From contig JAEWUV010000002.1 in assembly GCA_023396915.1 (NCBI GenBank), positions 151,705 to 215,704 on the forward strand: DNA of 64,000 bases, in the 5' to 3' direction. How positions within the stretch are numbered: the first letter of the stretch is position 1; each line of letters begins with the position of its first letter. This document shows, piece after piece, positions 3,263-55,994 of the stretch. Made by a program: the position numbers and the translations under genes. Below the pieces are notes generated by a model that saw only the letters and a program-made list of their open reading frames with translations, was not told the origin of the DNA and ran no database searches. The stretch is from Candidatus Parcubacteria bacterium (GTDB taxonomy: Bacteria; Patescibacteriota; Microgenomatia; UBA12405).

Positions 3263-4341
3263 AATTTAAGTGAATCAATAATAGTTTTTATAATTTTTTC
3301 GGCCTGTTCCTGATAAACATAACCTTCGGTGGCATAGGTACTAGCCACGGGAATTAAGTGTTTGGTAGTATAGATTTCGCCTTCGACTTTTTCTTTTTCA
3401 ATATAAGTATTGGTTTTGGTTAAACTTTCGTGAAAAGTCTCACCTTTGGGTAAAAAATCTAAAGTGGCAAGTAAAGTGCCAGAAATTATATATTTATCAA
3501 CCTTAAAAGCCAAACAACTTTTAATTGTTTTTGGTGGAGGAGTGGGTTCTGGGCCTTTAGGAAGAAGACCTTTGCCGGCTAATGGATCAAAACCACCACC
3601 TTGAAATTTATTAGGATCTCTGGGTTTAGGTTTTGGTTTGGGAGCGATAAAACGCTGATATTCCGGATTGTCCATCTCGGAATAAACAGCCGGATAACCG
3701 GTATATTTATCCATGAAATATTTAATACCCGAATTTTCTGGAACGGTTGGAGGTTTAACATTTTTTATTTGTTGATTAAACATATTCATTCCTTTTTTTT
3801 GCTCGGGGGTGAGAAATTTCAGAACTTCCGGATTTTGTAAGTTTTCAAATAAATTTTTGTAATTAAATCCCGGAGTGTGTATATCTATTTGGTTTTGGAG
3901 AGCTTGTTCGGCTTGAACTTCATCTGGATAAAGACAAACAGAAATGTAATAAGTGGAGTCATATTTTTCGTCTTGCATTTGATTAAATTTACCCCTGATT
4001 TCGGTTATTTTTTGAGGAGTGTAACCGGTCATCCAACCAGTGGCAGCAAGAGCGGTCATGGCATCAAAAAACTTCGTCATAGTTCCACGAGGAGTAATAC
4101 CATGAACAGAAACAGTTTCTCCGTTAACTTCGGCAGTGGGGTTACCGCTAACAAGTAAAGGATTAGCTTGATTCTCCGGGTCAAGATGACACAATTTTAT
4201 GGTTACCATGTTTTCATTCCCTTCTTGGGAAACTTCCACCCAGTTTTTTGGTAACCAATTTTTCGGTAGACTAATTGTCAGTTGATTCGTCGACATACAA
4301 AACAGTAATTTCCTGATTTTCTGGATTTTCGTAGTAAACAC
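3259..4341 (-). CDS. Hypothetical protein (Pro/Lys-rich central linker)
   Basis: 360-aa ORF. The start probably lies at an internal Met, because the listed start overlaps the upstream ORF by about 70 nt. Confidence 0.4.
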   Translation of the reverse strand: MFTTKIQKIRKLLFCMSTNQLTISLPKNWLPKNWVEVSQEGNENMVTIKLCHLDPENQANPLLVSGNPTAEVNGETVSVHGITPRGTMTKFFDAMTALAATGWMTGYTPQKITEIRGKFNQMQDEKYDSTYYISVCLYPDEVQAEQALQNQIDIHTPGFNYKNLFENLQNPEVLKFLTPEQKKGMNMFNQQIKNVKPPTVPENSGIKYFMDKYTGYPAVYSEMDNPEYQRFIAPKPKPKPRDPNKFQGGGFDPLAGKGLLPKGPEPTPPPKTIKSCLAFKVDKYIISGTLLATLDFLPKGETFHESLTKTNTYIEKEKVEGEIYTTKHLIPVASTYATEGYVYQEQAEKIIKTIIDSLKL

Positions 4342-4933
4342 TAAGAGAATTACCGTCCTTTTCCATTATGATATGGGCGGCATCAGCCTCTATGGTGTTC
4401 ATACCAGAAACATAACCATCATTGGTTAACTCTTCTACTAATTTATTCATATCTTCATTAGTCGGCGCCCTGGGAATTTTGAAAGAGGCTAGATAAGAAT
4501 CGCCTTGTTTCATGTAATTACCAGAAAAAAGAGTGGCTTTAATATCTCCAAAAACAGCCTTAAGTGGTGATTCAATGGTCGTCTTTACTATCGAAGAGGT
4601 ATTGCCAGTTAAAATAACTTCTTTGGTTTCATTAAATTTGTCTTTAGGAGTTTTAGCCGCTTCTTTAGCCTCTTCTTTTTTTTGTTCAGCTTCTTCTTTG
4701 GCTGCTTCTTGGGCAATATCTTTAATCATTTGATCGGTAAGCCCATTGTTACCACCAGTTAAATTACTTAATAAGCCAGCGTCGCCTCCATAAATTTTGG
4801 CTAGCTGTTTAACATATTGTTGTTGGCGCCAACGCGTAGCTCCATAATACAAACCACCAAGAATGATGATAGCAACGACCACAATCATAATTGGATTTAT
4901 TTTTTTACCAGAATTTTTTATTTCTTTTGTCAT
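4271..4933 (-). CDS. Membrane-anchored hypothetical protein (N-terminal TM, Glu/Lys-rich helical region)
   Basis: 220 aa with one N-terminal TM segment and an EEAKEAAK low-complexity region. Confidence 0.45.
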   Translation of the reverse strand: MTKEIKNSGKKINPIMIVVVAIIILGGLYYGATRWRQQQYVKQLAKIYGGDAGLLSNLTGGNNGLTDQMIKDIAQEAAKEEAEQKKEEAKEAAKTPKDKFNETKEVILTGNTSSIVKTTIESPLKAVFGDIKATLFSGNYMKQGDSYLASFKIPRAPTNEDMNKLVEELTNDGYVSGMNTIEADAAHIIMEKDGNSLSVYYENPENQEITVLYVDESTDN

Positions 4934-4948
4934 TTTTTTTATTAATTA

Positions 4949-5806
4949 TTAATTTTTAATTTTGAGTGAACCATCGGCTTCCATTTCTATACTACCTTTA
5001 TGTCGAGTTTGAGTTTCAAGTGTTTTTTGAAGATAGTCTTTTTGAGTGGTGTCCCAAATTGGTTCTTTTAAAATAAATTCATCATCTTTTCCAAATTCAT
5101 AGGTCATACCACGAAGCCAGAGTTCTTCCGCTATTAATTCTTTGCTTTTAGTAACTGGTGGAAGACACCCAATTGGATCAGGAAAACATGAATATTCAGT
5201 GGCGTTTATTTGGGGTTTGTTAGTAAAGGCTTCATTAAACATTAGTTTTTTATTTTTCGGATCAATATAGCCAACAAAAGAAACTGAAATAGGGCTATTA
5301 TTAATATTTTGTTTAATTAAGGCACTAGTAAAAGTTCTCCAAGGGTTTTGATAAATAATTTTGCCTTTGCCAATAATACTTATGGCGACACCATTAGTAT
5401 TAGTATTGGTAATACCAATATCTTTGGCTTGTTTAGCCCAATCAGGATTTTTTAAATCAATTGATAATTCGTCAATTTTAAAAGTGCTATTCATAGAAAT
5501 AAGTATGGGGATCATATAAGTGGGAATGTTACCATTGATTTTTTCAGTTATCTCTCCGGTCCATTTGGTATTTTTGAAATTAACCAAATTATATTTTTTT
5601 AAAATATCATCGGTGGAACCCTGAATTATAATAGCTGAAGAGGTAGCTGTCTGACCACCATCAACCATAAGATCGGCATTTTTGACACTGAATTTCAATT
5701 TATCGACAAAAAAAGACTTAATTTGGGTGGGAGTATAACCAAGACCGGTTAGTGTGACTAAAACTGCAGTTATTATAAATACTGTAATAAGAAAAGCTTT
5801 TCCCAT
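4949..5806 (-). CDS. Secreted or membrane-anchored hypothetical protein
   Basis: 285 aa with an N-terminal signal anchor. Confidence 0.45.
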   Translation of the reverse strand: MGKAFLITVFIITAVLVTLTGLGYTPTQIKSFFVDKLKFSVKNADLMVDGGQTATSSAIIIQGSTDDILKKYNLVNFKNTKWTGEITEKINGNIPTYMIPILISMNSTFKIDELSIDLKNPDWAKQAKDIGITNTNTNGVAISIIGKGKIIYQNPWRTFTSALIKQNINNSPISVSFVGYIDPKNKKLMFNEAFTNKPQINATEYSCFPDPIGCLPPVTKSKELIAEELWLRGMTYEFGKDDEFILKEPIWDTTQKDYLQKTLETQTRHKGSIEMEADGSLKIKN

Positions 5807-6525: not shown

Positions 6526-7176
6526 TTATTTATAAGTTTTATTATAACAATTGGCGGCTTTGGCAAAACCGGCCTCACTGGCTTCTGCCTCACTGCAAAA
6601 CCATTGGTCGCCTTGGTCTAACTCTAGGACAACATTACTGTAATTGCCACAACCGGGGAAAAAATAAGTTTTTTTACCTTCGCGAACATTACCTTTGATA
6701 TTACATTTAGAATTTTTGGGGTTAGTATTTTGAAGACAAAGATTACTAAAGATACCGACTTTGTCCTCTTTAGCCAGATTAAAAGCCGCTTTTAAATTTT
6801 CTGATTCAGGGGAAGCAGTCGAAGTAAAACGAGCCCAACCGGAAGAAATCATTTCTTGGTTAACCAATAAATCATCAACATAAACCAGGGCTAAAAGTCG
6901 ACCAAAAGTATCATTGATATCCCCTACCAAGCGAACTTTTTTACCGGAAATTAACTCGGTCAATTTTTCGGTAGCTTGCTGGCCACCGCAAAGATCTGGT
7001 TCCGGAGCGTTGACACTCATAAGACGAATCTGCCTATTGCCGGTAACAATAAAAGTATCGCCGTCAATAATTCGGCCAACTTGGACTAAATTATCGGAAA
7101 TATTTTGGGGGTGAAAAAATAAAAAAGCTAAAACACCACTGACAGCGACAGAAAGTCCTAAGAAAAATTTAAGCAT
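6526..7176 (-). CDS. Thermonuclease (SNase-like) family protein, membrane anchored, with Cys-rich C-terminus
   Basis: IIDGDTFIV...IRLMSVNAPE motifs match staphylococcal-nuclease homologues. I place the start at the internal MLKFFLGLSVAVSG signal anchor to avoid overlap with the upstream gene. Confidence 0.6.
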   Translation of the reverse strand: MLKFFLGLSVAVSGVLAFLFFHPQNISDNLVQVGRIIDGDTFIVTGNRQIRLMSVNAPEPDLCGGQQATEKLTELISGKKVRLVGDINDTFGRLLALVYVDDLLVNQEMISSGWARFTSTASPESENLKAAFNLAKEDKVGIFSNLCLQNTNPKNSKCNIKGNVREGKKTYFFPGCGNYSNVVLELDQGDQWFCSEAEASEAGFAKAANCYNKTYK

Positions 7177-10059: not shown

Positions 10060-12858
10060 TTAATTTTTATAATTTATAGCAATTGGAGTAATATTTATTC
10101 CTAATTTTGCACAAATACTTTGTCTATTGTTTGAACTAACTTCAAATTTATAAAGATGCTCCGCAACTAACATTTTAAGCAAGCTTTTAGTTAAATAGTT
10201 ATTATTAAAACTATCATTAAGTTTGATTATGTGTGGAATATTCAGCTTTCCTTGAAAATTTAAAGAAATAGCAATATCTATTAACTCCATGGCTTGGCTC
10301 GTATTAATATTTTTAATTTTTTCTATTGTTAAAAATAAATTTTTTGAGGCAACACTATCACTTGTTCTTTTAATAAAAAAGTAGCTAATCAATTCAAAGA
10401 AATTAAAAATTAAATTATTTATTGTTGCTTCAATATCTCCCTGTAAGTTTATTTTTTTGTCCTTTATGGTCTTTAAAATGTCTTCACGGATAGAACCTAT
10501 ATATTCTTCAGAATTATCCAAGAAAATTCTCAAAGACCTTAAACCTAGAGAGTAACATTCGTTTACCATAATAAGTTTCTTTCCACCATTTATTGAACCA
10601 TAATTATTGTTTGCAATCTGTCCTAGAATCTCCATTAATCTGAAGGAAAGATTAATTTTTGAGTAAAGACTTGATCCATCGTTATTTTTTTTATGTTCTT
10701 TTTCGTTTTTCTCTTTATTAATATCGTTTTCGTCTTCCGCTTTTAATATTTCTTCCCTATGTTCTTTTGCACTTCTATTGTCAATGGATATAGAAATTTC
10801 TTTATGAACTAGATCATTTATTACTTTCACTTCTTCTTTGGATAATGTTTGAGGTGGTACTCCTTTAAAAACTTTGTTTGACTCTTCTAGAATTTTGTCG
10901 ATTAAAGATTCACTTTTTGAGTGATGTGTTAAGAAAATAATTATATTAGCATTCTCGTCATCATAAAGATTTTCAATTAATTCAAAAATGGTTTTTTTAA
11001 TGTTCTCTTTTTCGAAATTATCTGATAAGAATTTTGCAATAAAATAATAAAATGAATAATTATGATTAAAAGAATAATATCCTGTTTCGTTTTTTAAAAT
11101 TTTGGCTCTGATTAGTGTTGAGTGAACATCCTCGTATGTTTTTTCCACATCCATCTCCGAGCAATATTTTTTATATAAACTTAACAAATCTTCTTCTGAT
11201 ATTTCCTTGATTTTATTAATAAAAAAATAATTAGCTACGTACGATAAATATGTATGATAAAAATCAAGGTCTTCAGGTTTAGTGTTAACTGAAAATAATG
11301 ATTGATTAATCAAATAACCATATAATTCTGCGTATGAACCACCTTGTATTTTATTTTTATTAGAAGCAACGGTTAATTCAAGTATAGTTAATAAATATAA
11401 TGGGTATGTTGGGATAAAATTTGAGCCGACTGCTATTTTAATCTTTTGAGCAATATCATTTTTTTCACTTAAAAGATCGTCGTCGTCACGATTTGTGTTC
11501 TGATCTAAAGTAAGCCACCTATCAATCATTTTATCCCTGAGTAGGTGTCCGAATTGTCTTATTTTATATGTCTTAAAATCAATAAAAAGATTTTTTATTT
11601 CAATATTTGAAATCAATTCTATTTCCATAGAATTATTTGAAAATATATAAATGTTTTCAAATAATTCTTTTATAAGGGAAATAAGTTGATTTCTTTGTTC
11701 TACCCTTTTTGGTAAAAGTTTTTCAAAATTATCAATTATTATTACAACTTTTTTAGGGTCATTGTTTAATAAGTATTTAAAATAATTTATATCTTTTTCA
11801 GTGTATTGTTCTTTAAACTTCTTTTCCAATAATTTTTGAAATGTATCCTTATTATTGCTGGATATATCTTCGCCTCTAAGAAAAATAGTAATTAAACTTT
11901 TTTGATTTAACTCTTTTTGCAACATGAAAGCTAAAGAAGTCTTTCCAGACAATGTATCTCCAAAGATAAAAATTTTATTATCTTTTTTGTCAATTAATGT
12001 TTTAGCATCGATATTCTCGTTTTTCTCAATGTCATCTAGGGCTGGGAAAATATAAATATCTTTTAAACATAGATTGTTATTTGATGGATGATTAATATTT
12101 ATTGAGAGTTCACATGATTTGTTTATATATTCTTGGTTTAGAAAAATATCTGGATGAATTTTAAAATATTCTTCGCTATCTTCTTCGAAATTAAAGATTG
12201 TATAATGATCTAGATCTTTAAAAGTTGTATCTAACTCAGATAAATTTTTAATTAGCAAATTCTCTTCTATAATTTTTCCATTCTTTGCGTTTGTAAAAAA
12301 AAGACCAGAAGGTACACCTCCTTCAAGAAATTTTGAAACCCAAAAATATCCATATTGGCAAACTAGAAAGATAGATTCCCCTAATTTATCGTTATTTTTA
12401 ATAATATCGCTGACTGTCTTTAACGCTATCTCTTCTGAAATAATTATATGAGCTGATAGCAAAGAATTTATTATTTTGTTTGGTGTATAGAATGTATATT
12501 TGGTTGACTCTTTACTTTTTTCAATTTCTTCAATAACACCTTGGGCTTCCTTTCCGAACTCAGATGTTGAGATTAACCAGGCTTCAGGCATTTTTAAATG
12601 GGTAGTTTTACCTTCCAGTGCAAAGATTATATTTGAATCTATTTTCTTATCTTCATTATAAGCTTTACATTCCACATATATTTGTTTATTCCTGTTTGGA
12701 ATAAAAGTACACAACAAATCCAACTCCATTCCTGTTCTTCTTAGCTCTTTAGTAACTTCATAGCTTTGTGCTTTTAACAATTCCGCTGAAATATCTTCTA
12801 ATAAATCACCTTGTTCTTTTGTAGAACTATCACATTTAACTGCAACTTCAATTTTCAT
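10060..12858 (-). CDS. STAND-type P-loop NTPase with N-terminal PD-(D/E)xK (Mrr/restriction-endonuclease-like) domain; Avs-like candidate defence protein
   Basis: N-terminus carries ...GMELDLLC...IYVECKAY (D, E.K catalytic triad pattern). Walker A is IFIFGDTLSGKTSLA and Walker B is VVIIIDNFEKL. A long alpha-helical C-terminal region follows. Confidence 0.55.
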   Translation of the reverse strand: MKIEVAVKCDSSTKEQGDLLEDISAELLKAQSYEVTKELRRTGMELDLLCTFIPNRNKQIYVECKAYNEDKKIDSNIIFALEGKTTHLKMPEAWLISTSEFGKEAQGVIEEIEKSKESTKYTFYTPNKIINSLLSAHIIISEEIALKTVSDIIKNNDKLGESIFLVCQYGYFWVSKFLEGGVPSGLFFTNAKNGKIIEENLLIKNLSELDTTFKDLDHYTIFNFEEDSEEYFKIHPDIFLNQEYINKSCELSININHPSNNNLCLKDIYIFPALDDIEKNENIDAKTLIDKKDNKIFIFGDTLSGKTSLAFMLQKELNQKSLITIFLRGEDISSNNKDTFQKLLEKKFKEQYTEKDINYFKYLLNNDPKKVVIIIDNFEKLLPKRVEQRNQLISLIKELFENIYIFSNNSMEIELISNIEIKNLFIDFKTYKIRQFGHLLRDKMIDRWLTLDQNTNRDDDDLLSEKNDIAQKIKIAVGSNFIPTYPLYLLTILELTVASNKNKIQGGSYAELYGYLINQSLFSVNTKPEDLDFYHTYLSYVANYFFINKIKEISEEDLLSLYKKYCSEMDVEKTYEDVHSTLIRAKILKNETGYYSFNHNYSFYYFIAKFLSDNFEKENIKKTIFELIENLYDDENANIIIFLTHHSKSESLIDKILEESNKVFKGVPPQTLSKEEVKVINDLVHKEISISIDNRSAKEHREEILKAEDENDINKEKNEKEHKKNNDGSSLYSKINLSFRLMEILGQIANNNYGSINGGKKLIMVNECYSLGLRSLRIFLDNSEEYIGSIREDILKTIKDKKINLQGDIEATINNLIFNFFELISYFFIKRTSDSVASKNLFLTIEKIKNINTSQAMELIDIAISLNFQGKLNIPHIIKLNDSFNNNYLTKSLLKMLVAEHLYKFEVSSNNRQSICAKLGINITPIAINYKN

Positions 12859-12889
12859 CTATTTAAACAGGTTCATTAATAAAAATTTG

Positions 12890-13181
12890 CTCCCCCGCGT
12901 GGACTCGAACCACGGACCGATCGCTTACAAGAAACCCTAAAATTTCTAATAGGCTTGGACTATATCATATCCCGATAAATCGGGACTTGGGCGCTAAATG
13001 GTGTAATCACCTAGTCTCTGAACCTTTCCCGACATAAAGCCGGGACTTGGCTGCGGGTTGCCATAATCCGAAAATCGGACATTAGGTTTCACGCAATTCA
13101 CCCAATTTTTCAATCTTGATTACTCAAGAAAGCTGCTAATTTCGTAACAGGCGAGCGCTCTACCGACTGAGCTACAGGGGA
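12890..13181 (-). tRNA. tRNA-Asn(GUU) interrupted by a group I intron in the anticodon loop
   Basis: Exon 1 is UCCCCUGUAGCUCAGUCGGUAGAGCGCUCGCCUGU. Exon 2 is UAAGCGAUCGGUCCGUGGUUCGAGUCCACGCGGGGGAG. Together they fold into a cloverleaf with a U1-A72 pair and a CUGUUAA anticodon loop, as in E. coli tRNA-Asn. Confidence 0.75.
12928..13146 (-). ncRNA. Group I intron (about 219 nt, no ORF) within tRNA-Asn
   Basis: Contains the canonical group I core elements R (GGTTCAGAGACTAGG) and S (ATGATATAGTCC). The 5' exon ends in U, which pairs with G of the internal guide sequence (IGS) GCAG. The intron ends in omega-G, and a P10 pairing (UUA-UAA) is possible. Confidence 0.7.
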
Positions 13182-13235
13182 ATGTAAAATAAAATTTAAA
13201 GTGCGAAGCTGACTTTGATTATAACATTCAAATTG

Positions 13236-13910
13236 TTAAGAAAGAACACCTTTAATCCAACCTAAAGTAAGGCGTAATTTACTTACATCATAAAATCTTA
13301 TTTTTATAATTCCGAATTGATGAATGTTTTTTCTAATTTTTGGACTATCTAATTTATTTTTGGCAAAATAAGTCTTTCCAAATTGTGATGGTTTTATTTT
13401 TAATAAATTACACCAAAATTTAATAGCATTTGGTTCATTTAAATTGTCGTGTAACCAAAGACTAAATTTGAGATTATCTTTTTTGATGTTACAAAATTCA
13501 CAAATCCAATTAGTCATAAATTTTATAGTTTGAGGATCTGCATTGGTAAACTCAAGGGCATTTCCTGTTTTTGAACCTTCGCCTTGATATAAAGTTATTC
13601 CAGCAATAAATCTGTCGCGTTTATTAAGTTTCCCTACTTGGGCTATTCCCTTTTTTAATAATTCTTTTTCTTGAATTTGTCGTTTGGTTTTGTTTGTTTT
13701 AGCACCTAAAATTCTGGCTTTTGATAAACCATTTTTTTTATTTTTAATTAGTTGCTCAATTTGATAACTGCTTAATTCTATATTTTTACAATATTTTGAA
13801 ATGGTACTTTTTGATGTTTCGGTGATTTTCTCAATTTCACGATATGACAAACCTTGTTGGCGTAATTTTTGAATTTTTTGTTTATTTTCTAAATTTCCGT
13901 AAAATCCCAT
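13236..13910 (-). CDS. HTH-domain protein (possible degenerate LAGLIDADG-like or regulator) immediately 5' of the intron-containing tRNA
   Basis: N-terminal GLSYREIEKITETSKSTISKY helix-turn-helix. A central FIAGITLYQGEGSK segment weakly resembles a LAGLIDADG motif. Very basic protein. Confidence 0.3.
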   Translation of the reverse strand: MGFYGNLENKQKIQKLRQQGLSYREIEKITETSKSTISKYCKNIELSSYQIEQLIKNKKNGLSKARILGAKTNKTKRQIQEKELLKKGIAQVGKLNKRDRFIAGITLYQGEGSKTGNALEFTNADPQTIKFMTNWICEFCNIKKDNLKFSLWLHDNLNEPNAIKFWCNLLKIKPSQFGKTYFAKNKLDSPKIRKNIHQFGIIKIRFYDVSKLRLTLGWIKGVLS

Positions 13911-13993: not shown

Positions 13994-14551
13994 ATGAAAT
14001 TAATTATAGTCAGACATGGAGAGACGGATGAAAACGTCAAAAAAATTATTCAGGGGCAGACGGATAATAGTCTAAACGAAAAAGGCAAAAAACAAGCAAA
14101 AGAAATTGGTAAACAATTAAAAGAGAAAGGTAAGATTGATATGGTGTTTTGCTCCCCTTTGAAAAGATGTAAAGAAACTTTGGAAGAAATTTTGTCAGAA
14201 TGCCCGATTGATGGGGAAATTTGTATGTCATGCTTGATTCAGGAAAGAGATTTTGGAGAATATACAGGGATGGAAACTTGTTTGATTAATTGGGACGAAA
14301 TATATGAAGACAGTAAATTAAATCAGGAGATGGGGGTGGAAAGTTTGGATAAACTGGAAAGAAGGGTGGAATTATTTTTGGAAGATTTGAAATTGGAAGG
14401 CGATGAAAAGACGGTTTTGATAGTTAGCCACGGAGGACCAATAATGGCAATAATCAACAAACTTAGTGGTAAAAATTTGAGATATCCGGAAGCAACGATA
14501 AATAACGGAGAGATAATGGAATTTGATTTGGACGCAAAACTGGACTTTTAG
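13994..14551 (+). CDS. Histidine phosphatase family protein (phosphoglycerate-mutase-like)
   Basis: LIIVRHGETDEN (RHG motif) and the catalytic-core pattern of the histidine phosphatase superfamily. Confidence 0.65.
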   Translation: MKLIIVRHGETDENVKKIIQGQTDNSLNEKGKKQAKEIGKQLKEKGKIDMVFCSPLKRCKETLEEILSECPIDGEICMSCLIQERDFGEYTGMETCLINWDEIYEDSKLNQEMGVESLDKLERRVELFLEDLKLEGDEKTVLIVSHGGPIMAIINKLSGKNLRYPEATINNGEIMEFDLDAKLDF

Positions 14552-14796
14552 TGATAGTGGTTAGTAATGGCCAATATTTCAATATTTTTATCAAGATCAA
14601 AGATAAAAATAACCCGGTATTTCCTATCTAGTCTAAAACTGTGAAAGCCTTTACTTCTCGGTTCTAATATTTCTAAATTCAAACTGGGGTGATTTGGATT
14701 TTTAAGAAATTGTTGGTATTGTTTCTCAAATTTTTTGACTAAATTATGATTAGAAAGATATGTCCTTTGGTCTTTAGTTAAAAAATCCAGGTTCAT
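14548..14796 (-). CDS. Type II toxin, RelE/ParE superfamily
   Basis: 82 aa. The start overlaps the upstream antitoxin stop (ATGA). C-terminal region is YRVIFIFDLDKNIEILAITNHYH. Confidence 0.5.
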   Translation of the reverse strand: MNLDFLTKDQRTYLSNHNLVKKFEKQYQQFLKNPNHPSLNLEILEPRSKGFHSFRLDRKYRVIFIFDLDKNIEILAITNHYH

Positions 14797-15083
14797 TTCT
14801 GATTAAAGAACCGACTATTTTTTAAACCATTTTCCATGTCTTTTAAAAATTCTTTGGAATATTTACCAGTTTCTTTGAGACTATTTAGAGCCTCTGAACG
14901 ACTACGGGTATCGGGTGAAGTGAAAGGAAAAGTAGTGATATTACTAATTAACTCTGGTTTGAATTGAAAAACACGAATTAAATTACGAAGTAATTCACTT
15001 CGATTTTCAAAATTATATTTGGCCGAAAGTTGGTCAATAAATTTGGCTTGTTCGTTAGTAATAGATATATTCACGGTGGTCAT
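14793..15083 (-). CDS. Type II antitoxin, ribbon-helix-helix (ParD/CopG-like)
   Basis: 96 aa with an RSELLRNLIR motif typical of RHH antitoxins. Translationally coupled to the toxin. Confidence 0.5.
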   Translation of the reverse strand: MTTVNISITNEQAKFIDQLSAKYNFENRSELLRNLIRVFQFKPELISNITTFPFTSPDTRSRSEALNSLKETGKYSKEFLKDMENGLKNSRFFNQK

Positions 15084-26438: not shown

Positions 26439-26508
26439 TGCGGGGTAGTGTACGGCTGCACGTGAGGCTCATAATCTCACAGGCCAGGTTCAACTCCTGG
26501 CCCCGCAA
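26439..26508 (+). tRNA. tRNA with CAU anticodon (Met/fMet/Ile2-type)
   Basis: UGCGGGG acceptor paired with CCCCGCA, canonical T arm CCAGG-UUCAACU-CCUGG, anticodon loop CUCAUAA. A hairpin followed by a U-run lies downstream. Confidence 0.5.
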
Positions 26509-26522
26509 CAAACAAAGAGGTC

Positions 26523-26722: not shown

Positions 26723-26799
26723 TGGTGGGTATGCATGGACTCGGACCATGGACCCCCGACTTATAAGATCGGTGCTCTAACCAACTGAGCTACATACCC
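26723..26799 (-). tRNA. tRNA with UAU anticodon (Ile-type), CCA encoded
   Basis: GGGUAUG acceptor, D arm GCUC-AGUUGGUUA-GAGC, anticodon loop CUUAUAA. The T loop UCCGAGU has C at position 55, which is unusual. Confidence 0.55.
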
Positions 26800-26810
26800 G
26801 GATATTTTTG

Positions 26811-26884
26811 TAGCAGGGGCGGGGCTCGAACCCGCGACCTTAGCGTTATGAATGCTACGCTCTAACCAGCTGAGCTACCCTGCC
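26811..26884 (-). tRNA. tRNA with CAU anticodon (Met/Ile2-type)
   Basis: GGCAGGG acceptor, D arm GCUC-AGCUGGUUA-GAGC, anticodon loop UUCAUAA, T arm GCGGG-UUCGAGC-CCCGC. Confidence 0.65.
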
Positions 26885-45798: not shown

Positions 45799-45807
45799 TA
45801 TTCCTCG

Positions 45808-46235
45808 GGGATGTATTGCATCGACGGGACAAGAACTTTAAAAAACTGCAAGCCGACTTTGATTAAATTAAGTCGTAAAACAGAATCAAAACAAAACATG
45901 CCAAATCTAATTTTGGTGAGAAATTTAATTTAGCCACTTCTTTTGGAAACTATGGTTTTCAAAATAATGCTAACTTAGCTTACGCTTTAGCATAAGCTTC
46001 TCCATTTACTATTTCCCTTTTCTGAAGAGAAATTGTAAGTGCCAACTAAATCAGAATGCTATTTTTAGAATCTCAATTTTTTAAAAATCTAAGAGGAGGG
46101 TAATGCCTTCACCAATTGACGTTTTAACGCCTTTTATTTACTTTAGCTGTTGAAAGTGTAGGAGAAAATAATTTAAGCTTGTAGATGTTTTTTACAGTCT
46201 GTTTTCGGACCCGGGCTCGATACCCGGCATCTCCA
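45808..46235 (+). ncRNA. ssrA: tmRNA (SsrA), about 428 nt
   Basis: 5' end GGGGATGTATTGCATCGACGGGA (the conserved tmRNA 5' acceptor/D-arm-like motif, GGGG..CGACGGG). Internal tag reading frame ...GCT AAC TTA GCT TAC GCT TTA GCA TAA (ANLAYALA-stop) at about 45968-45994. 3' T arm CCGGG-CUCGAUA-CCCGG and acceptor CAUCUCC-A. Adjacent smpB. Confidence 0.8.
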
Positions 46236-46240
46236 CTATT

Positions 46241-54470: not shown

Positions 54471-55962
54471 AAAGGAGGTGATCCATCCGCACCTTCCAGT
54501 ACGGATACCTTGTTACGACTTAACCCTCATCGCTGAATTTACCTTGGTCCCTGGCGAACCAGAGCCTTTGGGTACCCTCAACTTTGCTGATTTGACGGGC
54601 AGTGTGTGCAAGAGGCGAGAACGTATTCACCGCAATCTGCTGATTTGCGATTACTACCAATTCCGGGTTCATGCAGGCGAATTTCAGCCTGCAATCCCAA
54701 CTGAGGGATGGTTTAGGGATTAGCTCCACCTTGCGGTCTTGCAACCCTCTGTCCAACCCATTGTAGGATGTGTGTAGCCCTGGATATAAGCATCATGATG
54801 ACTTGACGTCGTCCCCTCCTTCCTCCCAACAAAATAATGCTGGGCAGTCTCGTATGACACGATAACATACGATAGGGGTTGCGCTCGTTACCTCACTTAA
54901 GAGAACAACTCACGTCACGAGCTGACGACAGCCATGCAACAGCTGTGTATCACCCTCGAAGGCGGCTCTACTTTCATAAAGCTTGCAGATACATTTCAAA
55001 CCCAGGTAAGGTTCATCGCTTCGTATCGAATTGAACCACATGCTCCACTGGTTGTGCGCCTCCCCGCCAATTCGTTTGAGTTTCGGCCTTGCGGCTATAC
55101 TCCCCAGGCGGTCTGTTTAACGCGTTAGCTAGCATCTCCCGGAAAAAATCCGGAAAATTAACAGACAATGTTTACGGCTAGGACTACTCAGGTCTCTAAT
55201 CTGATTGGCTACCCTAGCTTTCGTCTCTGAGTGTCAGTATATACCTGGTTACCCGCCTTCGCGCTTGGTGTTCTTTGTGGTATCCACGGATTTTACCCCT
55301 ACACCACAAATTCCAGTAACCCCGATATAACTCTAGTCTTCCAGTATCCTGCCCCTGCCCCTGATTAAGTCAGGGTCTTTGAAACAAGACTTAAAAAACC
55401 ACCTACAGACGCTTTACGCCCAATAAAACCGGGCAACGCTTGGAACCTACGTATTACCGCGACTGCTGGCACGTAGTTAGTAGTTCCTTATTCTGGGCGC
55501 CTTCATGGCTCCCAAAAAGTAGTTTACGACCCGAGGGCCTTCATCCTACACGCGATGTCGCTGCGTCAGACTTTCGTCCATTGCGCAAAATTCCTAACTG
55601 CTGCCTTCCGTAGAAGTATGGGCCGTGTCTCAGTCCCATTGTGCCGGACTCTCCGCTAAGAGCCGGTAGCCGTCATAGCCTTGGTAAGCCATTACCTTAC
55701 CAACAAGCTGGTAGCGAGCACACCACTCCCTTTGCGACTTGCGTCTTTAATCCGAAGATACTATAGGAAATTACCCCACCTTTCGGTGGACTATGTCCTA
55801 CAAAGGGGCATGTTTGTACTTATTACTCACCCGTTCGCCGCTAAACTTATTCTTTACACTCAAAAGCCAAAAAGCTTTTAGGTGTAAAAAACAAGTCCCG
55901 CTCGACTTGCATGTCTTAGGCACATCGCCAGCGTTCACCCTGAGCCACGATCAAACTCTTAG
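54471..55962 (-). rRNA. rrs: 16S ribosomal RNA (complete, about 1.49 kb, no intron), not linked to 23S/5S
   Basis: Minus strand reads AAGAGTTTGATCGTGGCTCAGGGTGAACGCTGG at the 5' end and ...AAGTCGTAACAAGGTATCCGTACTGGAAGGTGCGGATGGATCACCTCCTT at the 3' end. Internal GTGCCAGCAGTCGCGGTAATAC is a variant of the 515F site. Confidence 0.9.
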
Positions 55963-55994
55963 TACTAACAATCTCGACAAATTCGAGATCAAAA

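Follow-up and report, generated by a model that had tools for sequence, protein, structure and literature searches.

A group I intron predicted in the anticodon loop of a Candidatus Parcubacteria tRNA-Asn(GUU) gene, and an upstream gene family linked to interrupted tRNA-Asn genes

The minus strand of a 64,000-nucleotide (nt) stretch of contig JAEWUV010000002.1 from a Candidatus Parcubacteria bacterium (assembly GCA_023396915.1, positions 151,705 to 215,704), referred to here as the window, carries a tRNA-Asn(GUU) gene whose two halves are separated by 219 nt. Upstream of it lie a promoter-like element and an open reading frame (ORF) of 224 amino acids (aa). An earlier note on this DNA had attributed the interruption to a group I intron lying between positions 35 and 36 of the anticodon. 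The evidence presented below bears this out, and we conclude with high confidence that the gene is split at 35/36 by an ORF-less 219-nt group I intron belonging to the published class of 35/36 introns in tRNA-Asn. The coordinates of the locus have been collected in Table 1.

Table 1. Features of the interrupted tRNA-Asn locus, numbered from the first nucleotide of the window; pairing percentages refer to the 37-sequence alignment described in the text.
Feature	Position	Strand	Basis or remark
tRNA-Asn(GUU) interrupted gene	13181-12890	minus	read from sequence and ARAGORN with introns
tRNA-Asn 5′ exon, positions 1-35, 35 nt	13147..13181	minus	sequence and ARAGORN -i
Group I intron, 219 nt	12928..13146	minus	RF00028, covariation and minimum free energy (MFE)
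tRNA-Asn 3′ exon, 38 nt	12890..12927	minus	sequence and ARAGORN with introns
P1	13133..13150	minus	exon CUGU plus intron UA (13150-13145) pairs with UAGCAG (13138-13133)
P2 hairpin, 6 base pairs (bp), GUAA (GNRA) loop	13114..13129	minus	90% paired, 6/6 pairs changed on both sides
P3 5′ strand, UUGGGUG	13099..13105	minus	pairs with 12993-12987
P4, enclosing P5/P5a	13052..13095	minus	13095-13090 with 13057-13052; P5/P5a is 13086-13061
P6 (GCC/GGU) and P6a hairpin	13022..13051	minus	P6 100% paired; P6a 90.4%, 6 pairs changed on both sides
P7 5′ strand, G-A-GACUA with bulged A, within R element	13012..13018	minus	invariant 37/37, outside search pattern
Extra hairpin GGUG-AUUA-CACC, P7 to P3′	13000..13011	minus	reduced P7.1/P7.2 region
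P3 3′ strand, CGCCCAA	12987..12993	minus	Rfam alignment and covariation
P8 hairpin	12970..12985	minus	outer four pairs 96.6% paired, 3 changed on both sides
P7 3′ strand, UAGUCC, within S element	12957..12962	minus	Rfam alignment
P9 hairpin, GAAA (GNRA) loop	12936..12953	minus	80.3% paired, 6 pairs changed on both sides
Extended -10 promoter-like element TGTTATAAT	13218..13226	minus	read directly from sequence
224-aa ORF	13236..13910	minus	same strand as tRNA, ends 54 nt upstream of tRNA

The interrupted tRNA-Asn gene

The 5′ exon, UCCCCUGUAGCUCAGUCGGUAGAGCGCUCGCCUGU on the minus strand with the 3′ end ...CUCGCCUGU, comprises the 5′ strand of the acceptor stem, the D arm, the 5′ strand of the anticodon stem and the loop residues C32, U33, G34 and U35. 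The 5′ splice site follows U35 (window position 13147), and the exon end CUGU recurs in 37/37 aligned homologues. The 3′ exon, which starts UAAGCGAU and ends CGGGGGAG, supplies U36, A37 and A38, the 3′ strand of the anticodon stem, the variable loop, the T arm and the 3′ strand of the acceptor stem (CGGGGGA plus the discriminator G73); no CCA is encoded by the gene. Between the two exons, the intron begins UACGAAAUUAGCAG and ends CUUG, the last residue being omega-G at 12928. It contains no ORF, and both an R-like (GGUUCAGAGACUAGG) and an S-like (AUGAUAUAGUCC) core sequence are found within it. The two minus-strand halves about 219 nt apart and the R and S core described in the earlier note are thus exact to the base.

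When the region was searched alone (12700-13400, about 700 nt), the Rfam model RF00028 (Intron_gpI) matched 12936-13156 on the minus strand over its entire length (positions 1-253); the score was 78.9 bits (E 2.5e-20), the gathering score being 50. The match is far beyond chance. ARAGORN with introns allowed gave tRNA-Asn(gtt) i(36,219), that is, an intron after position 35, whether it was run on the excised region or on the entire window. Furthermore, the MFE of the intron alone lies 2.9 standard deviations below that of shuffled controls (z-score -2.9). Both programs had been named in the earlier note as checks, and both recovered the element.

Default settings gave a different picture. ARAGORN with introns off called nothing at the intron site, and an Rfam scan of the whole 64-kb window at the gathering threshold missed the intron, presumably because of speed filters, as 78.9 bits exceeds the gathering score. 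Rfam speed filters can hide true group I introns of this kind in A+T-rich genomes; the G+C content of the window is 35%. Within the 64-kb window, a motif search and ARAGORN -i detected no further group I core and no further interrupted tRNA, and ARAGORN -i found no second tRNA-Asn.

The joined exons fold into a cloverleaf in which the anticodon loop reads CUGUUAA and U1 pairs with A72 in the acceptor stem, as the earlier note had described in likening the product to E. coli tRNA-Asn. Of 5,426 complete E. coli genomes, 5,425 have a match that covers at least 80% of the joined exons; identity is 76.7% for the full-length matches listed, and every match listed is an annotated tRNA-Asn.

Azoarcus tRNA-Ile carries one of the classical bacterial group I introns of tRNA genes. 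Other classical sites are tRNA-Leu(UAA) of cyanobacteria (34/35), tRNA-fMet (33/34) and tRNA-Arg(CCU) (36/37) (PMC13011429). The window intron resembles these in being small and ORF-less, in its place in the anticodon loop, in its very similar R and S cores, in the GNRA loops on P2 and P9 and, as predicted, in its two-step, guanosine-initiated chemistry. It differs from them in insertion site and host tRNA.

The known range of bacterial tRNA introns has been widened from 4 to 21 types (Williams, 2020; bioRxiv 10.1101/2020.01.27.920355), and according to Nakagawa et al. (PMC13011429) the type ‘Asn.4Ug’ is among those listed there with tFind. Nakagawa et al. (bioRxiv 2025; mSystems 2026, PMC13011429) surveyed 95 complete genomes of Patescibacteria and found 15 tRNA-Asn(GUU) and 3 tRNA-Asp(GUC) genes with group I introns at 35/36. 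Precise self-splicing in vitro, with an omega-G-to-C control, was demonstrated for the tRNA-Asn intron of GCA_016700035.1 and the tRNA-Asp intron of GCA_001029755.1. The same authors noted that standard tools miss such introns or mis-call the genes as Thr(UGU) interrupted at 33/34. The window intron shares with this class the host gene, the anticodon, the insertion site, U at position -1 with its U.G pair, omega-G, the absence of an internal ORF, the failure of default tools to detect it and the phylum of the host; its 219 nt lie within the published size range of 184-894 nt. The window copy comes from a metagenome scaffold, whereas the 95 genomes of the study are complete. An Asn host with an insertion at 35/36, which the earlier note considered unusual, is therefore a class listed by Williams (2020) and spliced by Nakagawa et al., and the search described next adds at least 75 more species to it. 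The intron, as a member of a published class, adds little by itself; the gene family linked to it, described in the last section, is the more noteworthy part.

Homologues and the fold of the intron

Homologues were sought in species-representative genomes with a pattern made up of the S element and omega-G followed by UAA and the T arm. At least 120 loci matched; all counts from this search are lower bounds and do not provide frequencies. In at least 75 further species the locus resolved cleanly into a split tRNA-Asn(GUU), whose exon 1 ends in YUGU and whose intron measures 180-345 nt. Among the matches listed, the records are mostly from Patescibacteria lineages, with a few from Omnitrophota, Elusimicrobia, Planctomycetes and ‘Gammaproteobacteria’ metagenome-assembled genomes. 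Interrupted tRNA-Asn genes are common in Patescibacteria and missed by default annotation, which bears on tRNA-based estimates of genome completeness.

Two types of intron occupy the 35/36 site of tRNA-Asn, indicating that two intron lineages share one site, and the window intron is of the majority type. The second, smaller type (L009, L015, L022, L034, L037, L039, L041, L051, L078, L079, L085, L096, L100, L107, L111 and L118) has the core ...CGGGAUAACGGUGAA...ACCGUGGGAAC...CCGUAGAGACUAGAU-ACCG... and no hairpins between P7 and P3′; one of its members, L051, scores only 39 bits on RF00028.

The helices of the window intron were read from the Rfam alignment and the sequence, and were checked on an alignment of 37 sequences of the majority type. 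The complete P1-P9 fold forms, including the P3/P7 pseudoknot in which the two helices cross, which the earlier note had named as a check. In P1, the guide GCAG pairs with the exon end CUGU and the U35.G wobble marks the 5′ splice site; the U at the exon end, this pairing and the terminal G had all been predicted. The pairs C-G, U-A, G-C and U.G of P1 are each found in 37/37 homologues, and GCAG lies outside the search pattern. P3 (7 bp) is 97.3% paired and P4 (6 bp) 99.1% paired, each with 4 pairs changed on both sides. P7 (6 bp) is invariant in 37/37, the invariance of its 3′ strand being partly forced by the presence of ATATAGTC in the search pattern. Its 5′ strand holds the presumed guanosine-binding G-C pair, adjacent to the bulged A.

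Across the 37-sequence alignment, 90.2% of cells are standard pairs, compared with 36.6-44.7% when the partners are slid by 1-3 columns. Likewise, the covariation score is 0.471, compared with 0.06-0.11 for the slid pairings, and 0 of 500 shuffles reached the observed value. The fold is conserved under selection.

Among the matches listed, the closest relative of the window copy is L014, with identical exons, a pre-tRNA that is 90.7% identical and an RpoD protein that is 90% identical. Thirteen pairs differ between the two introns, of which 11 are paired in both, 9 of these 11 having been altered by changes on both sides. In P6a alone five pairs differ, four by changes on both sides and one on one side, and all are still paired. 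These compensatory changes point to selection on the fold in the lineage of the window itself. Moreover, three independent metagenome assemblies (L121-L123) contain the window pre-tRNA at 100% identity, and a fourth contig, L125, matches it at 100% over the 265 nt that it retains.

Between P7 and P3′, most homologues have two hairpins (UCCC-GNRA-GGGA and a variable one), whereas the window intron has a single short hairpin of 4 bp and a linker in place of P7.1 and P7.2. The spacer measures 18 nt including the hairpin GGUGAUUACACC, and the same short, single-hairpin form is common to the window, L014, L139, L141 and L143. The IC3 subgroup suggested in the earlier note, in which P7 is followed directly by P3′ with no P7.1/P7.2, was rejected, as extra structure sits between these two strands. 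The intron is probably IA-like. Of the 28 published introns at 35/36, 25 were assigned to IA, whereas IC accounts for 81% of all tRNA introns in the same study and for most of the classical ones (PMC13011429); the extra P7-P3′ structure of the window lineage is a further difference from the latter.

Several observations weigh against a functional intron at this site. P4 has one U.C mismatch in the window copy and P9 carries two U.U mismatches. The columns of P5/P5a (70% paired) and of P7.1 align poorly across the family and lend weak support. A conserved P10 was looked for and not found, with at best 3 bp. The P7 3′ strand, omega-G with UAA, the T arm and the exon stems owe their conservation partly to the search pattern and the boundary rule. 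Finally, the support for the window copy is at the level of its sequence, and the splicing of this copy is itself a prediction.

The mismatches in P4 and P9, together with a P7.1/P7.2 region that is reduced relative to most relatives, would be consistent with a decayed, non-splicing relic within a tRNA pseudogene. We regard this as very unlikely: all core elements are intact, the covariance-model score comfortably exceeds the gathering score, the great majority of the differences from L014 are compensatory and independent samples have the identical sequence. Furthermore, the window has no other tRNA-Asn, and published genomes with an interrupted copy usually have no tRNA-Asn besides it (PMC13011429).

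Splice sites and intron-less relatives

The predicted exon junction can be compared with uninterrupted genes. A 32-mer spanning it was found in eight metagenome contigs. One of the uninterrupted tRNA-Asn genes, in L131, is identical at 73 of 73 positions to the predicted ligated exons and adjoins a homologue of the histidine-phosphatase gene of the window; excision of exactly 219 nt therefore recreates a gene existing in nature. L127 and L128 also have an uninterrupted tRNA-Asn at the same place; they have the neighbourhood of dnaG, rpoD and the histidine-phosphatase gene in common with the window, and their RpoD is 90% identical. The presence of such uninterrupted, syntenic alleles in close relatives shows that the intron was recently gained or lost.

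The uninterrupted relatives have the loop CUGUUAA and are called Asn, which bears on the register of the splice sites. If these were placed two bases upstream, at 33/34, the product would be tRNA-Thr(UGU), a reading that ARAGORN and tFind frequently give for introns of this class; ARAGORN made this call, Thr(tgt) with an intron at 33 or 34, for 45 related loci among the matches listed, and the same ambiguity has been documented for the published introns (PMC13011429). However, an intron in that register would end in U rather than G in the window, and U33 pairs with A, whereas the conserved U.G wobble is at U35. Only 35/36 yields both the U.G pair at position -1 and omega-G. The gene body, with U1-A72 and G73, best matches E. 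coli tRNA-Asn, ARAGORN calls the window gene itself Asn, and sequencing of spliced products confirmed 35/36 for the published introns (PMC13011429). The Thr(UGU) reading was accordingly rejected as extremely improbable.

Splicing of the window copy would then proceed as follows. The element TGTTATAAT precedes the 5′ end of the tRNA by 36 nt, in the gap that separates the tRNA from the 224-aa ORF, and TGnTATAAT occurs at the same place in L134, L135, L137, L139 and L143; a generic promoter scan did not flag TGTTATAAT because there is no match to a -35 element. The precursor is probably transcribed from this TGnTATAAT. As the covariance-model score and the covariation show, the intron folds into P1-P9 with the P3/P7 pseudoknot, and pairing of GCAG with the exon end CUGU puts the U.G wobble at the 5′ splice site. 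P7 would bind an exogenous guanosine, which would attack after U35, as expected from the group I mechanism and from the splicing of homologues in vitro (PMC13011429). On the same grounds, omega-G would replace this guanosine, and the 3′-OH of U35 would attack after omega-G, joining the exons to give the loop CUGUUAA. Cleavage by RNase P and addition of CCA would presumably complete the tRNA.

Remnants of tRNA sequence were noticed at some of these loci. In L127 (about 6765-6830) and also in L128, a degenerate 5′ half of tRNA-Asn, TCCCCTGTAGCTC...CGGTAGTAGCTCGCCTGTTAAG, follows a promoter resembling that of the window, and the intact, intron-less tRNA-Asn comes about 290 nt further downstream; within the 290-nt stretch between the two in L127, Rfam detected no decayed intron. 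L137 and L141 likewise have short duplicates of the tRNA 5′ end upstream of the tRNA. All these partial copies look like scars of recombination or replacement at the locus.

The upstream gene and other features of the window

The 224-aa ORF encodes an N-terminal helix-turn-helix (HTH), followed by a long helix; its C-terminal domain is of alpha/beta type and carries FIAGIxLYxGEGSK, a conserved motif. Its family comprises 153 members at E <=1e-3, all of about 225 aa and mostly unnamed or hypothetical; two members from the Joint Genome Institute (JGI) are named ‘transposase’ and ‘transcriptional regulator with XRE-family HTH domain’. All members for which an organism is given come from Patescibacteria lineages.

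An interrupted tRNA-Asn(GUU) was found 0-90 nt downstream of the gene, on the same strand, in all nine contexts examined (the window, L004, L051, L134, L135, L137, L139, L141 and L143; 38-100% identity, or 38-78% without the window itself); the neighbouring genes on the far side vary. The linked interruptions are all group I by Rfam, eight of them above the gathering score and the ninth being L051 with its 39 bits; the gene therefore occurs with both intron types, L051 carrying the second. Conversely, the gene is present in 2 of the 69 intron-containing loci with enough upstream sequence among the matches listed, and a homologue was found in 0 of 8 intron-less loci. Three states are seen among relatives whose RpoD proteins are about 90% identical: gene and intron (the window), intron only (L014) and neither (L127). 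Such a pattern is consistent with a selfish gene tied to the site of the intron. The conserved upstream gene lies outside the introns to which the published survey was confined (PMC13011429), and its link to interrupted tRNA-Asn genes is apparently unreported.

The function of the protein was examined through its domains. The AlphaFold 2 (AF2) model, with a predicted local distance difference test (pLDDT) score of 92, shows the HTH, a 45-residue helix and the alpha/beta domain. In a comparison of the family profile with PDB, the best non-HTH matches were all to I-DmoI (E 0.04), with lYaaEGsKT aligned on GLYVAEGDKT. In 35 of 36 members the acidic residue of the motif (E111) is either E or D; it aligns with the E of AEGD in I-DmoI, where that residue is catalytic. 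These observations make a LAGLIDADG-like domain probable. The protein departs from I-DmoI and other LAGLIDADG enzymes, and from WhiA, in that its HTH is N-terminal and joined by the 45-residue helix, in an additional helix and strand relative to the canonical alpha-beta-beta-alpha-beta-beta-alpha topology, and in having one motif; with a single motif, the protein would have to act as a dimer.

Other searches gave no such match. Pfam, PHROGs and phmmer against PDB identified only the HTH in the 224-aa ORF. For LAGLIDADG, Pfam gave no match at E <=10 with the ORF or at E <=1 with 36 members, and PHROGs gave none. Foldseek against PDB and BFVD returned no significant match, the top matches being OmpA-like folds.

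We tentatively extend the reading of the intron to a mobile unit of two parts. In this proposal the 224-aa protein is a free-standing, single-motif, LAGLIDADG-like nuclease with an HTH, which cuts intron-less tRNA-Asn at or near 35/36; the intron would protect its carrier, and repair would copy gene and intron together. The invariable presence of the family upstream of interrupted tRNA-Asn amid varying far-side genes, its association with group I introns of both types, the occurrence of all three states among close relatives, the confident AF2 model, the I-DmoI profile matches and the conserved acidic residue are consistent with it. So is the established collaborative homing of phages (PMC3984707), in which a free-standing gene acts with an ORF-less intron, as for F-CphI beside the psbA intron of cyanophage S-PM2 and for T4 mobE with the nrdB intron (PMC3984707, PMC6083498, PMC2790892). 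The phage pairs concern protein-coding genes, with demonstrated cleavage at the site of intron insertion, whereas the window has a chromosomal bacterial tRNA gene and a candidate nuclease of a predicted LAGLIDADG-like family with a presumed target. Against a nuclease stand the absence of a Pfam LAGLIDADG match even at E <=10, the Foldseek result with its OmpA-like top matches and the extra helix and strand of the modelled topology. WhiA combines a LAGLIDADG fold with an HTH and yet is a non-catalytic DNA binder, and a regulator or a splicing cofactor could also produce tight linkage.

The main alternative is accordingly a regulatory or maturase role, in which the 224-aa protein is an HTH factor that binds DNA or RNA, regulating the tRNA promoter or acting as a maturase-like helper, and the intron is immobile and vertically inherited. 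The only significant sequence matches of the protein are to HTH families, and its gene ends right at the tRNA promoter. LAGLIDADG proteins can be maturases or, like WhiA, regulators (PMC3984707), and Nakagawa et al. argued for limited transfer of the introns (PMC13011429). However, 67 of the 69 intron loci among the matches listed have no such gene, including L014 with its intron of about 90% identity, so the intron does not need it. Its patchy occurrence across classes of Patescibacteria, amid changing neighbours, is more readily expected of a selfish gene than of a host factor, and the acidic residue of the motif is conserved. We consider this alternative somewhat less likely than the nuclease.

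The link between gene and tRNA is observed; the nuclease function is a hypothesis drawn from it and from the domain evidence. That the ORF-less intron and the 224-aa gene form a collaborative homing pair in a bacterial chromosome is a possibility that we put forward with reserve: the predicted endonuclease would target the anticodon stem-loop of intron-less tRNA-Asn, the intron would immunise the gene, and cut alleles would receive the two together. On this view, nuclease genes outside introns would drive the spread of 35/36 introns in Patescibacteria, and surveys confined to introns would miss them. In the published survey endonuclease genes were sought inside introns only, where four Asn introns were found to carry HNH genes, and transfer was concluded to be limited because most introns are without endonuclease genes (PMC13011429); that inference would be undercut. 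Should the 224-aa protein be a free-standing homing endonuclease, this would represent the first description of collaborative homing at a chromosomal tRNA gene of a bacterium, and would offer a testable account of the persistence and spread of ORF-less introns in extremely reduced genomes.

A second nuclease-type gene was also encountered at this site. In L020, L044 and L110, from three different lineages, GIY-YIG ORFs of about 82-84 aa (Pfam E 2e-15 to 3e-12) lie directly upstream of the interrupted tRNA-Asn and end at its first base or overlap it by one base.

Downstream of the window tRNA, at a distance of 31 nt, starts a gene of 932 aa (10060-12858, minus strand) with an Mrr-type restriction-endonuclease domain and a STAND/AAA NTPase (Pfam Mrr_cat, NA-iREase1, AAA_22 and nSTAND_NTPase4), which looks defence-like. 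L014 has no similarity to this gene, so the region downstream of the tRNA is variable. In L134 a large serine recombinase (Resolvase and Recombinase domains) and a terminase-like GpA_ATPase gene (3506-5678) lie directly downstream of the interrupted tRNA-Asn, which suggests a prophage or island integrated at the tRNA. On the other side, rpoD and the histidine-phosphatase gene are separated by a pair of short, overlapping ORFs of 96 and 82 aa without a Pfam match, both in the window (14548-15083, minus strand) and in L134 (1266-1798); neither L014 nor L127 gave a match to them.

Elsewhere in the window, a 16S rRNA gene of 1,496 nt (54471-55966, minus strand; 1325 bits) has a 35-nt expansion near its 5′ end and several shortened helices, and no intron was detected in it. 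No 23S or 5S rRNA genes were reported in the window, and the rRNA genes may be unlinked. The transfer-messenger RNA (tmRNA) gene (45807-46238, plus strand) measures 432 nt, compared with 374 positions in the model. About 56 nt are inserted downstream of its resume/tag region, and its pseudoknots match weakly (91 bits, bias 14.6). Finally, two tRNA genes adjoin each other on the minus strand, a tRNA-Ile with the anticodon UAU and a tRNA with the anticodon CAU (26723-26799 and 26810-26884), and a third tRNA, again with CAU, lies at 26439-26509 on the plus strand. A UAU anticodon is an uncommon means of reading AUA in bacteria.

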